From: Escherichia phage vB_EcoM_UP17
Sequence record: LR746137
Length of the DNA: 64,000 nt
Direction: 5' to 3' (one strand)
Shown: positions 8,864-19,652 of the stretch, in pieces
Position numbering within the stretch: the stretch's first letter is position 1
How the letters are laid out: every line of letters begins with the position of its first letter
Notes under the pieces: model-generated
Databases searched by the model: none
What the model saw: the letters and a program-made list of their open reading frames with translations, nothing else
What the model was told of the DNA's origin: nothing
Translations under genes and position numbers: made by a program

Positions 8864-9054
8864 AAAAATGCCTCCAGGTATTTTGCACAATGATAAGCTA
8901 AGAAACAAGAAACTACCGCATACCCAACTCCAGACATACATGAATCAATCGCAACACATACGGTTCTTTTCTTTGAGTTCTTAGGAAAGTTTTCCGAAGC
9001 ATTCATACAATAAAAAGAAAGCACACTGAAAACGATTAAAATGGCTAAGAACAT
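8860..9054 (-). CDS. small membrane protein (64 aa)
   Basis: Strong RBS TAAGGAGG before ATG; MFLAILIVFSVLSFY transmembrane segment; ATGA overlap with the next gene. Confidence 0.4.
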   Translation of the reverse strand: MFLAILIVFSVLSFYCMNASENFPKNSKKRTVCVAIDSCMSGVGYAVVSCFLAYHCAKYLEAFL

Positions 9055-17619: not shown

Positions 17620-17691
17620 GGCCCTGTAGCTCAATGGGAGAGCTGTCGGCTCATAACCGATAGGTAGCTGGATCGAAACCAGCCAGGGCCA
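17620..17691 (+). tRNA. tRNA-Met (anticodon CAT)
   Basis: Hand-folded cloverleaf: acceptor GGCCCTG/CAGGGCC, anticodon loop CTCATAA, T-arm GCTGG-ATCGAAA-CCAGC, encoded CCA. Confidence 0.7.
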
Positions 17692-17696
17692 CCAAC

Positions 17697-17768
17697 GTCT
17701 TTATGGTGTAATGGATAGCACAGGAGTCTTCTAAACTCTTAGTCAAGGTTCGATTCCTTGTAAAGACA
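17697..17768 (+). tRNA. tRNA-Arg (anticodon TCT)
   Basis: Acceptor GTCTTTA/TAAAGAC, anticodon stem GGAGT/ACTCT with loop CTTCTAA, T-arm CAAGG-TTCGATT-CCTTG, CCA encoded. Confidence 0.7.
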
Positions 17769-17967
17769 CCAGAACATTTTAACATGAATTAGCTCAAGTG
17801 ATTTGAACCCACTACTGATCATAGTGGCAGAGAATGAGGCAAGTATGTCAGACATTGTAAACAAAGGCCACGGTTACATTAGAAGATATAAATGCTCGAA
17901 GAGCACCGTTCGCTGAGAACGGGGGTTGGTGGAGTCACCATTCATGGTAAAATGTTTTAAAAAACTA

Positions 17968-17996
17968 TTGACAACTAACATTATTTTATGTTAGAT
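17968..17996 (+). promoter_or_regulatory. sigma70-like promoter (TTGACA, TATGTTAGAT)
   Basis: AAAACTATTGACAAC followed 13 nt later by TATGTTAGATTATAAG, 10 nt before tRNA-Ser. Confidence 0.45.
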
Positions 17997-18005
17997 TATA
18001 AGTAT

Positions 18006-18093
18006 GGAAGGGCAAATCGACGTGGTGACGAAAACGGTCTTGAAAACCGCCGAGCTTGAAAGAGCCTTGGGAGTTCGACTCTCCCTCCTTCCG
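18006..18093 (+). tRNA. tRNA-Ser (anticodon TGA), class II
   Basis: Acceptor GGAAGGG/TCCTTCC, anticodon loop CTTGAAA, long variable arm, T-arm GGGAG-TTCGACT-CTCCC, CCA encoded. Confidence 0.7.
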
Positions 18094-18101
18094 CCAGATT
18101 A

Positions 18102-18184
18102 GGTAGATTGGTGAAATGGTAGCCACGACAGTTTGCTAAACTGTAGTCGGAAACGGCGTGTAGGTTCGAGTCCTACATCTACCG
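18102..18184 (+). tRNA. tRNA-Ser (anticodon GCT), class II
   Basis: Acceptor GGTAGAT/ATCTACC, anticodon stem ACAGT/ACTGT with loop TTGCTAA, long variable arm, T-arm GTAGG-TTCGAGT-CCTAC. Confidence 0.7.
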
Positions 18185-18314
18185 CCAAGTTGTTTTTAAT
18201 GTAGCGTTGCGGCTACTTACTTTAGCAGAGTAAATCTTCGGCAAGTGGCGGTAACCACTTTACCGATACCGCATAGTCAGTAAGGCGAATACTGGCTACT
18301 TTAAAAACAATTTT

Positions 18315-18395
18315 GTGAGATTGGCAGAGTGGTCGATTGCGGGGGACTGTAAATCCCTTCTGAAAGGCGCGGTGGTTCGAATCCATCATCTCACA
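18315..18395 (+). tRNA. tRNA-Tyr (anticodon GTA), class II
   Basis: Acceptor GTGAGAT/ATCTCAC, anticodon stem GGGGA/TCCCT with loop CTGTAAA, long variable arm, T-arm GGTGG-TTCGAAT-CCATC. Confidence 0.7.
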
Positions 18396-18404
18396 CCAAA
18401 TTAA

Positions 18405-18487
18405 GATGAGTTGGCTGAATGGTTTAAGCGGCGGACTGTTAATCCGTGTTCGAAAGAACGATATAGGTTCAAATCCTATACTCATCG
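18405..18487 (+). tRNA. atypical class II tRNA, anticodon loop CTGTTAA (reads as GTT, Asn) with 15-nt variable arm
   Basis: Acceptor GATGAGT/ACTCATC, anticodon stem GCGGA/TCCGT, variable region GTTCGAAAGAACGAT, T-arm ATAGG-TTCAAAT-CCTAT; isotype assignment uncertain. Confidence 0.5.
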
Positions 18488-18497
18488 CCAGAATTAT

Positions 18498-18575
18498 GGA
18501 CTTGTAGAGTTAAGGTAAAACCTCCAGTCGCCAAGAGGCTTCTGGAATTGCAGGTATCGAATCCTGCCGAGTCCC
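18498..18575 (+). pseudogene. degenerate tRNA-like element
   Basis: Good 7-bp acceptor GGACTTG/CGAGTCC and T-arm GCAGG...CCTGC, but T-loop is 8 nt (TATCGAAT) and no canonical anticodon arm or CCA could be folded. Confidence 0.3.
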
Positions 18576-18581
18576 AGATTT

Positions 18582-18653
18582 GCTCCTATAGTATAATGGC
18601 TATTACAACGGTTTTGTAATCCGTGGATCTCTGTTCGATTCAGAGTGGGAGCA
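18582..18653 (+). tRNA. tRNA-Thr (anticodon TGT)
   Basis: Acceptor GCTCCTA/TGGGAGC, anticodon loop TTTGTAA, T-arm CTCTG-TTCGATT-CAGAG, CCA encoded. Confidence 0.7.
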
Positions 18654-18929
18654 CCAACACAACATTAAGAGCACTGTGATTGATCGTCGTATCCTGTGCA
18701 CAAGGTCTGTTCGAAAGACAGTGTTCTTAGTATTGTGTTGATCACACAAAGAGTCACCTGAAACTTGACCGGAGTAGGGTTGGATGGGGCAAAAGAAGAA
18801 GCGGCTCTCCCATCGACAGCAACGAAGAATAATATTTGACTTTAGTTTTGTATTATTTTAAGTTAGCTTACCGAACGTAGGGCTAGTCACCCAACGGGAT
18901 ACTCGTCACTGTCCCACTCAATAAAACTA

Positions 18930-18959
18930 TTGACAACCAATAGTAAAATGTAGTATAGT
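18930..18959 (+). promoter_or_regulatory. sigma70-like promoter with extended -10 (TTGACA, TGTAGTATAGT)
   Basis: AAAACTATTGACAACC followed 13 nt later by TGTAGTATAGT, 11 nt before tRNA-Gly. Confidence 0.45.
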
Positions 18960-18970
18960 AAAGATGTAGG

Positions 18971-19041
18971 GCGTTCTTGGTGTAGCGGTAGCATTCCGTC
19001 CTTCCAAGTCGGCGGCACGAGTTCGATCCTCGTAGGACGCT
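18971..19041 (+). tRNA. tRNA-Gly (anticodon TCC)
   Basis: Acceptor GCGTTCT/AGGACGC, anticodon loop CTTCCAA, T-arm ACGAG-TTCGATC-CTCGT, CCA encoded. Confidence 0.65.
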
Positions 19042-19142
19042 CCAAATTATTTAATAAAGGGTTGCCAGAAAACTTTCTCTTTTACTCATGGTTTTCTCCT
19101 TCTCTCACACCTCTTCTGGTTGCCCTTCATTAAATGATTTAT

Positions 19143-19215
19143 TGGTTTGTAGTGTAGTCAGGTAGCACACGACACTTTGACTGTCGTAGGTTTGGTTCAA
19201 ATCCAGACAGACCAG
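19143..19215 (+). tRNA. tRNA-Gln (anticodon TTG)
   Basis: U1-A72 acceptor TGGTTTG/CAGACCA (as in enterobacterial tRNA-Gln), anticodon stem CGACA/TGTCG with loop CTTTGAC, T-arm TTTGG-TTCAAAT-CCAGA, CCA encoded. Confidence 0.65.
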
Positions 19216-19223
19216 CCATATAA

Positions 19224-19297
19224 CGGAATTTAGCTCAGTTTGGTAGAGCATACGCTTTGGGAGCGTAGGGTCGCAGGTTCGAATCCTGCAATTCCGA
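19224..19297 (+). tRNA. tRNA-Pro (anticodon TGG)
   Basis: Acceptor CGGAATT/AATTCCG, anticodon stem TACGC/GCGTA with loop TTTGGGA, T-arm GCAGG-TTCGAAT-CCTGC, CCA encoded. Confidence 0.7.
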
Positions 19298-19306
19298 CCA
19301 ATTTAA

Positions 19307-19377
19307 TGTTTCGTAGTTCAATGGTAGAACCCACGACTGATAATCGTGAGACACAAGTTCGATTCTTGTCGAAACAA
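19307..19377 (+). tRNA. tRNA-Ile (anticodon GAT)
   Basis: Acceptor TGTTTCG/CGAAACA, D-stem GTTC/GAAC, anticodon stem CACGA/TCGTG with loop CTGATAA, T-arm ACAAG-TTCGATT-CTTGT, CCA encoded. Confidence 0.65.
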
Positions 19378-19382
19378 CCAGT

Positions 19383-19452
19383 TTCCCGTTAGACTTACAG
19401 GATAAGAGTTCCACAGCTTATTGTGATGCTGGTTCGAATCCAGCACGGGATA
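19383..19452 (+). pseudogene. degenerate tRNA-like element
   Basis: Canonical T-arm GCTGG-TTCGAAT-CCAGC and 6-bp acceptor, but the anticodon region folds as CACAG-CTTA-TTGTG (4-nt loop) and no CCA is encoded. Confidence 0.3.
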
Positions 19453-19458
19453 CATAAT

Positions 19459-19534
19459 AGCGGGATAGAGGAGTCTGGTCGTCCTCGCCAGTTTCATATG
19501 CTGGAGATCATTGGTTCAAATCCAATTCCCGCCT
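19459..19534 (+). tRNA. tRNA with anticodon CAT (Met or lysidine-type Ile2)
   Basis: Acceptor AGCGGGA/TCCCGCC with mismatched 1:72, D-stem GAGG/CCTC, anticodon stem CCAGT/GCTGG with loop TTCATAT, T-arm ATTGG-TTCAAAT-CCAAT, CCA encoded. Confidence 0.6.
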
Positions 19535-19652
19535 CCAAATATCGCTTGCCAGCGGTATCTTTGAAGAACTTGCCTGGTTCCTTCTAAGATGGAGGGGTGC
19601 GACTCCTTAACGCACAATCATAATAAAGCATTTCAAATTAACAGTATTTATT

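Follow-up and report, generated by a model that had tools for sequence, protein, structure and literature searches.

A tRNA-Asn(GUU) gene with a long variable arm in the tRNA cluster of an Escherichia phage and its recurrence in phages and mobile tRNA arrays

Organization of the tRNA cluster

The window, the whole 64,000-nucleotide (64-kb) stretch of DNA from Escherichia phage vB_EcoM_UP17 (record LR746137) that was analyzed, contained a cluster of 11 tRNA genes on the plus strand at positions 17620 to 19537: Met, Arg-TCT, Ser-GCT, Tyr, Asn, Thr-TGT, Gly-TCC, Gln-TTG, Pro-TGG, Ile-GAT and Met/Ile-CAT. Across this cluster the window was 98.6% identical to Escherichia phage phAPEC8 (Phapecoctavirus, Stephanstirmvirinae). 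The gene described here, the fifth of the eleven, started 6 nt past tRNA-Tyr and is annotated as tRNA-Asn in the GenBank records of phAPEC8 and many relatives. No further tRNA-Asn gene was found by ARAGORN in the 64-kb window, and asparagine codons made up 5.9% of the 13,211 codons in the window's long open reading frames.

A promoter-like site, identified by consensus match only (TTGACA-18-TAGATT with a TG motif, plus strand, 17968 to 17997), was located upstream of the Ser-Tyr-Asn-Thr sub-cluster. The promoter-like sites were plausibly placed but were not enriched over shuffled sequences. Just downstream of the tRNA-Asn gene, at 18498 to 18575 on the plus strand, there was an unannotated tRNA-like RNA homologous to 'rna3' of phage T5. 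This RNA was clearly non-decoding, and it formed a conserved pair with the tRNA-Asn gene.

Structure of the tRNA-Asn gene

The gene occupied positions 18405 to 18490 of the plus strand (86 nt with an encoded CCA) and had the shape of a class II tRNA, according to ARAGORN, Rfam, the minimum-energy fold and the annotation of relatives. ARAGORN called tRNA-Asn(gtt) at 18405 to 18490. The Rfam tRNA model RF00005 matched 18405 to 18487 over the full model (positions 1 to 71) with 62 bits and an E-value of 4.8e-11 (gathering score 29), and the alignment placed a 12-nt insertion in the variable region. The minimum-energy fold was the same five-helix cloverleaf at -23.7 kcal/mol, with a z-score of -1.71 that was modest by itself. 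Taken as a whole, the gene is far beyond chance and is a real tRNA.

In the acceptor stem, GATGAGT (18405 to 18411) was paired with ACTCATC (18480 to 18486), starting with G1-C72, A2-U71 and U3-A70, and 7/7 pairs covaried across homologues. The D-arm (18414 to 18429, plus strand; GCT, G, AATGGTTT, A, AGC) had a 3-bp stem with G13 and A22 unpaired and G18 and G19 present. The anticodon arm GCGGA-CTGTTAA-TCCGT (18431 to 18447) contained four Watson-Crick pairs and a G27-U43 wobble, and its loop CTGTTAA (18436 to 18442) carried U33, A37 and the anticodon GTT (G34 U35 U36; 18438 to 18440, located by ARAGORN and Rfam), which reads AAC/AAU. It was followed by a long variable arm of 15 nt at 18448 to 18462, recognized in the sequence, the fold and the covariation, in which GTTC (18448 to 18451) and GAAC (18456 to 18459) formed a 4-bp stem closed by a GAAA loop (18452 to 18455), with GAT (18460 to 18462) unpaired. 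The T-arm ATAGG-TTCAAAT-CCTAT (18463 to 18479), supported by the Rfam match and by covariation, completed a standard 7/5 arrangement of acceptor and T-stems, and the discriminator G73 (18487) was followed directly by the encoded CCA (18488 to 18490).

Class II tRNAs are defined by a stem-loop variable region of 10 nt or more (PMC3333845), and canonical class I tRNAs have a variable loop of 4 to 5 nt; the window tRNA-Asn, with 15 nt and a 4-bp stem, belongs to the former. In the class I Asn genes of the data surveyed below, the variable region was 4 to 6 nt. The initial annotation had described normal acceptor, D- and T-arms, a single 5-bp anticodon stem around a GTT anticodon and a hairpin in the variable arm, and every point of this description was borne out. 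It had offered three explanations, namely a phage tRNA of noncanonical type, an insertion in a tRNA or a mis-folded Leu-type tRNA, and the first two proved to be both right and one and the same thing.

The class II shape, the nearby tRNA-Tyr and tRNA-Ser genes and the fact that a single base change converts GTA (Tyr) or GCT (Ser) to GTT would fit a tRNA of the Leu, Tyr or Ser type in the wrong fold, or else a pseudogene, with its real anticodon elsewhere. This explanation is extremely improbable. ARAGORN, Infernal and the minimum-energy fold, as three independent methods, returned the same register and no second register or anticodon; the anticodon loop and flanking stem equal those of the host tRNA-Asn; G73 rules out Leu and Tyr identity; and across phage families the gene has been kept, with compensatory changes. 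An alternative fold with a standard class II anticodon, which the initial annotation had named as grounds for refutation, was given by none of ARAGORN, Rfam/Infernal and the minimum-energy fold, and the Leu- or Tyr-type candidate was rejected.

Covariation in the variable arm

Eighteen diverse homologues in register with the window gene, chosen for a simple-hairpin arm, were aligned. Over the whole cloverleaf of these homologues 98.8% of cells were paired, compared to 69.6% in shuffles, and covariation backed all five helices. In the variable arm of the same alignment, 4/4 pairs had changed on both sides and 97.2% of cells paired, with stems such as GTTC/GAAC, GAAC/GTTC, ATCC/GGAT, GTCA/TGAC and GAGC/GCTC. 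The signal collapsed when the partners were slid against each other. Within the genus, substitutions were confined to unpaired positions.

Among the matches listed, the arm folded as a simple hairpin in 94/104 family members, and the commonest geometry was 0/4/4/3, as in the window gene. The usual arm had a stem of 3 to 4 bp, a four-base loop (often GAAA) and 3 to 4 unpaired bases before the T-stem. As judged from these alignments, the base-paired variable-arm hairpin is real and is maintained by selection, in agreement with the hairpin proposed at first from the window alone.

Amino acid identity

According to textbooks and reviews, the only bacterial tRNAs with long variable arms are those for Ser, Leu, Tyr and Sec, and the arm is regarded as a mark of synthetase identity (PMC9976931, PMC3333845). 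Asparagine identity in E. coli consists of the anticodon and G73, a set that can be transplanted into tRNA-Lys (PMC9976931). Both elements of this AsnRS identity set, GUU and G73, were present in the window tRNA, and its positions 25 to 43 were identical to those of E. coli asnT (MG1655). The two tRNAs also agree in the CCA, in U33 and A37 (the context for the Q34 and t6A37 modifications), in the predicted synthetase and in the codons read. They differ in that asnT has 76 nt, a 5-nt variable loop and U1-A72/C2-G71, whereas the window gene has 86 nt, a 15-nt arm and G1-C72/A2-U71; the D-arms differ as well.

In E. coli, A73 is a crucial element for LeuRS and a critical one for TyrRS, U35 of the GUA anticodon is critical in tRNA-Tyr, and in tRNA-Ser G73 is an antideterminant that works against both LeuRS and TyrRS (PMC9976931). 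Isotype features were counted in the tRNAs collected from the loci of the matches listed. Among these, the discriminator was G in 95/105 unique long-arm Asn tRNAs and A in 78/78 long-arm Leu and 55/56 Tyr tRNAs, and the 86 Ser tRNAs had G, U and A in 51, 30 and 5 cases, respectively. After stricter filtering, G73 was found in 83/85 viral long-arm GTT tRNAs. The window gene carried G73 where tRNA-Leu and tRNA-Tyr have A73, and GUU where tRNA-Tyr has GUA. On these sequence features Leu and Tyr identity are excluded, because G73 replaces A73. The mis-folded Leu-type tRNA of the initial annotation was thereby dropped, three methods having given the same fold and GTT.

For the first pair of the acceptor stem (1-72), the tRNAs in the matches listed had U-A in 67/105 long-arm Asn, G-C in 80/86 Ser, G-C in 38 and G-U in 33 of 78 Leu, and G-C in 52/56 Tyr tRNAs. 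Pair 2-71 in the same matches listed was C-G in 47/105 and G-C in 41/105 long-arm Asn, G-C in 83/86 Ser, C-G in 58/78 Leu and G-C in 37/56 Tyr tRNAs. The pairs U1-A72 and C2-G71 characterize both bacterial tRNA-Asn and the class I Asn genes from the same loci, and in this the acceptor stems of the family resemble Asn and not Ser tRNAs; the window gene has A2-U71. The arm stem, again among the matches listed, was mostly 3 to 4 bp in long-arm Asn, mostly 4 to 7 bp in Ser, 2 to 5 bp in Leu and mostly 3 to 4 bp in Tyr tRNAs, and the bases left unpaired on its 3' side numbered mostly 3 to 4, 0 to 2 (79/85), mostly 1 to 2 and mostly 3, respectively. The arm geometry of phage tRNA-Tyr (3 to 4 bp, approximately 3 unpaired bases 3') was closest to that of long-arm Asn. 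With class II Ser, Leu and Tyr tRNAs in general the window tRNA shares a stem-loop arm of at least 10 nt, G9, a 3-bp D-stem and unpaired positions 13 and 22; unlike them, it has the anticodon of a class I amino acid and has neither A73, as in Leu and Tyr, nor G2-C71, as in Ser.

Serine identity is less easily dismissed. It resides mainly in the arm and ignores the anticodon; G1-C72 and G2-C71 are invariant in E. coli tRNA-Ser, and the C2-G71 pair of E. coli tRNA-Leu serves as a SerRS antideterminant (PMC9976931). A long variable arm with G73 or U73 is regarded as marking a SerRS substrate (PMC5389517), so that the combination of long arm and G73 counts against the asparagine reading. The variable region of the phage's own tRNA-Ser(GCU) is also 15 nt long. 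SerRS might then charge the window tRNA wholly, or in competition with AsnRS, and place serine at AAC/AAU. Parallels are the allo-tRNAs and the nematode nev-tRNAs, the latter being a case of natural mischarging of class II tRNAs with mismatched anticodons (PMC3333845).

Arm size alone is insufficient to exclude SerRS, and several other features make such missense decoding improbable. The window gene has G1-C72 but A2-U71 in place of the G2-C71 found in 83/86 phage tRNA-Ser among the matches listed, and nearly half of the family has C2-G71, the anti-SerRS element of E. coli tRNA-Leu. Its arm, with 4 bp and 3 unpaired bases, has a shorter stem and more unpaired 3' bases than Ser arms. The full AsnRS identity set is conserved, and long-arm phage tRNAs of other isotypes retain their own discriminators (U in 7/8 Cys, G in 5/5 Trp, and A in 3/3 Ile(GAU) and 10/12 Ile(UAU)), with no convergence on a Ser-like base. 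Moreover, missense at 5.9% of the phage codons would be costly. On sequence grounds Ser identity is accordingly disfavoured, less firmly than Leu and Tyr identity, because SerRS depends chiefly on the arm, and the variable region of the phage tRNA-Ser(GCU) is of equal length.

The nev-tRNAs, with Gly or Ile anticodons, likewise combine a long arm with an anticodon other than Ser, Leu or Tyr and are lineage-specific, in multiple copies or lineages; they are however derived from tRNA-Leu, carry LeuRS determinants and are charged only with leucine (PMC3333845), whereas the window tRNA has the Asn determinants and not those of Leu, Tyr or Ser. The bacterial and phage allo-tRNAs, with related irregular tRNAs, have long variable arms, often G73, and diverse anticodons, and they occur in phages and in polycistronic tRNA clusters; they differ in an 8/4 or 9/3 acceptor/T-stem and Sec-like D-arms, compared to 7/5 in the window tRNA, and accept Ser or Ala, as predicted or shown (PMC5389517).

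The heavy use of asparagine codons and the retention of their own discriminators by long-arm tRNAs of other isotypes favor Asn, and from its identity elements the tRNA is most likely charged by the host AsnRS and reads AAC/AAU. We thus consider it a genuine phage asparagine tRNA on a class II architecture, a reading to which we give a probability of roughly 0.7. The gene would be transcribed together with the neighbouring tRNAs, processed by host enzymes and charged by host AsnRS through its intact GUU and G73, and AAC/AAU would be decoded as asparagine. It would add to the host's tRNA-Asn to meet the demand of an Asn-rich phage proteome, or stand in for host tRNA-Asn once this is depleted. 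The arm would be a hairpin of approximately 10 nt inserted into the variable loop of an Asn tRNA and leaving the AsnRS determinants untouched. The Asp/Asn/Lys group of class II synthetases meets the tRNA on its variable-region side, and for this reason the arm could hinder AsnRS.

If AsnRS charges the long-arm tRNA, a class IIb synthetase tolerates a long arm, the arm together with G73 is insufficient for serine identity in vivo, and caution is due with annotation rules under which a long arm means Ser, Leu or Tyr. A parallel to one AsnRS serving both shapes is seen in Streptomyces coelicolor, where tRNA-Leu of types I and II are served by one LeuRS; there, in contrast, a class II isotype has lost the arm in a cellular genome (PMC6614811), whereas in phages a class I isotype has gained it.

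Distribution in phages and cellular genomes

The tRNA-Asn gene was 100% identical in several relatives and conserved across hundreds of phage records. GTT tRNAs of 82 to 86 nt with the same layout were found in phi92 (Justusliebigvirus), in Klebsiella and Salmonella Vequintavirinae (rV5-like), in T5-like Demerecviridae (Epseptimavirus, Tequintavirus AKFV33 and Proteus Novosibvirus) and in one T4-like Klebsiella phage. The long-arm tRNA-Asn was conserved in four enterobacterial phage lineages (Stephanstirmvirinae, Vequintavirinae, Demerecviridae and the T4-like Klebsiella phage). A class I tRNA-Asn was found in Kuttervirus Maynard and in phage T5 itself, and most other T5-like phages had the long-arm form at T5's tRNA-Asn locus. 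The Cys-Asn neighbourhood was found by BLAST in 444 T5-like records.

IMG/VR was searched with a pattern consisting of the conserved Asn anticodon loop and a spacer longer than a class I tRNA allows, which gave at least 120 matches. Among the matches listed, 114/126 GTT tRNAs in the IMG/VR loci were at least 80 nt long; the loop CTGTTAA is fixed by the pattern in this set, so that its constancy is not independent evidence. Viral contigs were rescanned with short and long spacers admitted alike, and the long form accounted for 14/111 (13%) of the viral-contig tRNA-Asn genes and for 11/60 (18%) of those inside tRNA clusters. This census covered tRNAs with the common GGACTGTTAATCC anticodon arm, and the conservation of a host-like anticodon arm across the family is in part built in, since the census required it.

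A scan of bacteria and archaea with the long-spacer pattern and one genome per species (185,579 species) was mostly artefact: approximately 19 of its 71 matches were real long-arm cases, and class I tRNA-Asn genes with GTTCGA in the acceptor strand had also matched. Most of the cellular cases lay in dense tRNA arrays of 5 to 27 genes (for example in Micromonospora, Methyloprofundus and a Flavobacteriales MAG). The 5,426 complete E. coli genomes searched had no match to a long-arm tRNA-Asn. The long-arm tRNA-Asn is recurrent in phages and mobile tRNA arrays and near absent from ordinary chromosomes, because 13 to 18% of viral genes compare with approximately 19 cases in 185,579 species. The initial statement that long arms are not normal for Asn therefore held for cellular genomes and failed for phage tRNA clusters, where the form recurs.

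Hairpins in the variable arm were also present on phage Cys, Trp, Thr, Ile, Met, Glu and a few Lys tRNAs, Asn being the class I isotype that carried the arm most often. A long variable region was present in only approximately 52% of the phage tRNA-Leu in the same loci. With long arms in approximately one-sixth of phage-cluster tRNA-Asn genes, a class I isotype combines a long arm with its own identity elements even in well-studied coliphage groups. No explicit description of a long-arm tRNA-Asn was found in the literature by a search that was thin on subscription journals and on the older T5 tRNA sequencing papers, and a review table of unusual tRNAs had no bacterial or phage counterpart of the nev-tRNAs. 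The gene itself is already annotated as tRNA-Asn in GenBank, and its class II shape is apparently new, as we found no text on it; an earlier mention is possible.

Some of these data would suit a working tRNA-Asn in which the arm has no function, is tolerated, is spread by transfer of tRNA cassettes and is paired only to spare folding. Variable loops are the part of a tRNA most tolerant of length changes, phage tRNA-Leu in the same loci vary freely in this respect, and arms occur at low frequency on many isotypes. Obvious accidents exist as well, for example a tandem duplication in Azoarcus, and neither the test of body origin nor that of co-occurrence, both given below, yielded a functional signal. 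A neutral passenger is less readily reconciled with the same short GNRA-capped hairpin design across approximately 31 very different D-arm lineages, with the enrichment in phages and tRNA arrays, with Asn being the class I isotype most often affected, or with the retention of the arm across four enterobacterial phage lineages. We regard neutrality as a serious alternative, though on balance the less likely one.

Origin of the long-arm genes

The D-arm and anticodon arm of the window gene closely matched those of the class I phage tRNA-Asn of Kuttervirus Maynard, and its D-arm was also nearly the same as that of the Epseptimavirus long-arm tRNA-Asn. Many family members had an acceptor starting with UCC..., as in bacterial tRNA-Asn. 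The match of the D- and anticodon arms to class I Asn and the UCC... start fit an insertion into an Asn tRNA. A nearest-neighbour test, in which D- and T-arms were compared with those of 1,356 other tRNAs of these loci, was too noisy: class I Asn was enriched approximately fourfold, but Ile, Ser, Cys and Thr came up just as often. Clustering gave approximately 31 D-arm lineages without a single source.

Across the four enterobacterial phage lineages, as far as can be told from their sequences, the long-arm genes are clearly homologous. The neighbouring tRNA-like RNA shared with T5 points to a small cassette that may have moved horizontally.

Possible functions of the variable arm

The gene may do no more than supply tRNA for asparagine codons. 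A further possibility concerns PARIS, whose nuclease AriB cleaves E. coli tRNA-Asn(GUU) at C40|C41; the Lys, Thr and Asn tRNAs of T5 jointly rescue cells, and T5 tRNA-Asn contributes to the rescue (PMC12409363). The anticodon arm of the window tRNA, identical to that of asnT, spans this cut site. Its positions 36 to 41 (UAAUC|C) are those of the cleavable E. coli tRNA-Asn, and the arm starts three bases beyond. [quoted passage not shown] The host cleavage site with an adjacent arm, together with the occurrence of the long arm in most T5-like phages, therefore makes escape by shape attractive.

The extra arm could then be an anti-defence device, in which the host anticodon arm is kept and the fit to Toprim/OLD-type nucleases such as PARIS AriB is lost. 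The arm would alter the shape beside the anticodon stem and the tRNA core, so that host tRNA-targeting factors reject the phage copy, and the retained host anticodon arm would preserve full compatibility with the synthetase, modification and decoding. If so, escape by shape would be a second route beside the known mutations of the anticodon loop and stem, and it would account as well for the arms that phage Asn, Thr, Cys, Trp, Lys and other class I tRNAs carry. A blocking of defence nucleases by the arm would be a new phage escape from tRNA-directed immunity and would suggest a simple design for nuclease-resistant tRNAs.

This proposal, our leading one for the purpose of the arm, is tentative and, in our estimate, rather doubtful. 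The T5 relative Bas34 has its own tRNA-Asn (class I or long-arm) and yet needs that of T5 (PMC12409363), which counts against a shield. Some T5-like phages also carry a long-arm Thr(UGU), and the weak statistics of its co-occurrence with long-arm Asn (8/48 compared to 2/24) count against it as well. The word 'variable' is absent from the PARIS paper (PMC12409363).

A host-identical anticodon arm, AriB site included, on an altered body could instead serve as a decoy that is not mainly translational and titrates tRNA-Asn nucleases or other host factors. Inhibition of AriB by overexpressed viral tRNAs through competition was raised by the PARIS authors (PMC12409363), and a non-decoding tRNA-like RNA lies immediately downstream of the gene. 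The conserved G73, encoded CCA, canonical T-loop, G18 and G19 and 7/5 stems are rather those of a charged tRNA compatible with EF-Tu and the ribosome, and this is the only tRNA-Asn gene of a cluster in a phage that uses Asn codons heavily; we consider a decoy improbable.

The T5 tRNA-Asn(GUU) that escapes PARIS/AriB is, like the window tRNA as read here, a phage replacement for a cleaved host tRNA (PMC12409363). It differs in being a class I molecule of 78 nt with anticodon-stem substitutions at the cleavage site, whereas the window tRNA has the host sequence and an arm. That the T5 tRNA-Asn of the experiments was of class I and had a changed anticodon stem counts against our reading of the window gene as a class II-shaped asparagine tRNA. 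The rescue from AriB toxicity by this T5 tRNA-Asn, on the other hand, lends some indirect support to charging by AsnRS. The Cys-Asn-'rna3' neighbourhood is common to T5, T5-like phages and the window. Immunity systems do inspect the variable region of tRNAs, since Septu is reported to cleave the variable loop of tRNA-Tyr.

Conserved tRNA-like RNA directly 3′ of tRNA-Asn

The tRNA-Asn gene (18405-18490, plus strand) and the tRNA-like RNA that follows it form a conserved two-gene module. The second member of this module, found at 18498-18575 (+) between tRNA-Asn and tRNA-Thr, carries no annotation and scored 26.9 bits against the Rfam tRNA model, below the threshold of 29, with a fold z-score of -3.55. 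It has an acceptor stem of 7 bp and a T-loop of 8 nt (UAUCGAAU), a rod-like arm in place of the anticodon loop, and no CCA. A homologue was found in phage T5 as 'rna3' (T5s07), which is also directly 3′ of the T5 tRNA-Asn, and phi92 and AKFV33 have further homologues at this position. Epseptimavirus 26175IV lacks it.

Changes near the AriB site in phage tRNA-Asn and tRNA-Lys

The T5 tRNA-Asn (8953-9030 of its locus, L197) is a 78-nt class I tRNA with a rewritten anticodon stem, GCATC-TTGTTAA-GTTGA. In contrast, the tRNA-Asn found at the same locus in the relatives GreteKellenberger (L198) and AKFV33 (L199), at positions 279-361 in both, is an 83-nt long-arm form that has a host-like anticodon stem. 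The stem-rewritten class I tRNA of T5 and the long-arm tRNA-Asn of its relatives may be two alternative answers to one pressure.

The tRNA-Lys site cleaved by AriB, the PARIS nuclease that cuts host tRNAs, adjoins the position of anticodon-stem pair 31-39 (PMC12409363). In the phi92 'tRNA-Lys TTT' (2326-2401 of locus L001), to which ARAGORN assigned no 3-nt anticodon, giving 'tt', this pair appears to be disrupted (U/C) when the sequence is read by eye. In the window phage, the corresponding position lacks a tRNA-Lys. In Salmonella phage SalP219 (L316), an annotated tRNA-Lys of 87 nt was found just upstream of a long tRNA-Asn (positions 1-40 and 101-182 of the locus, respectively), and in that tRNA-Asn pair 31-39 was changed from A-U to C-G, a compensated change beside the AriB site.

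Variable-arm hairpins on other isotypes

In the phage tRNA clusters of the IMG/VR loci, short variable-arm hairpins, often GAAA-capped, were also found on other class I isotypes, each of which kept its own isotype's discriminator. Examples of such long forms are Thr-tgt (87 nt; loci L016 and L088), Cys (84 nt; L048-L050), Trp (84-87 nt; L018 and L053), Lys-ttt (88-90 nt; L129 and L147) and Glu (86-89 nt; L071 and L074). In a sample unbiased by length, the long form made up 15% of Asn, 13% of Ile, 9% of His, 8% of Cys, 8% of Trp and 6% of Thr tRNA genes. Among the phage tRNA-Leu genes of the length-unbiased sample, about half (28 of 54) had a long variable region; a 77-nt Leu-taa at 3851-3927 of L002 is an example of the short form, and the tRNA-Leu genes of T5-like phages are class I-sized.

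At first count, 11 of the 15 phage tRNA-Ile(UAU) genes among the matches listed were 91-96 nt long. The variable arm of the long genes (L007, L019, L022, L023, L025, L026, L052, L073, L114, L147 and others) was 21-26 nt, with a loop of approximately 7 nt in which a motif such as CAGATTA or CAGATAA recurred. Long phage tRNA-Ile(UAU) is a distinct class II-like form that is apparently conserved.

Chromosomal arrays of 15-27 tRNA genes in 2.5 kb also included a tRNA-Asn of 83-90 nt, in Micromonospora/Verrucosispora (L131, L132, L141 and L189), Methyloprofundus (L191) and a Flavobacteriales MAG (L147). In two of these arrays (L147 and L191), a normal 76-nt tRNA-Asn was found in addition to the long copy.

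The final tRNA of the window cluster (19459-19537, plus strand; 79 nt), with a CAT anticodon at position 37, had the lowest score against Rfam within the cluster (50 bits). It is annotated as 'tRNA-Pseudo-CAT' in phAPEC8 and Mt1B1_P17, and may belong to the Ile2 type or be atypical in some other way.
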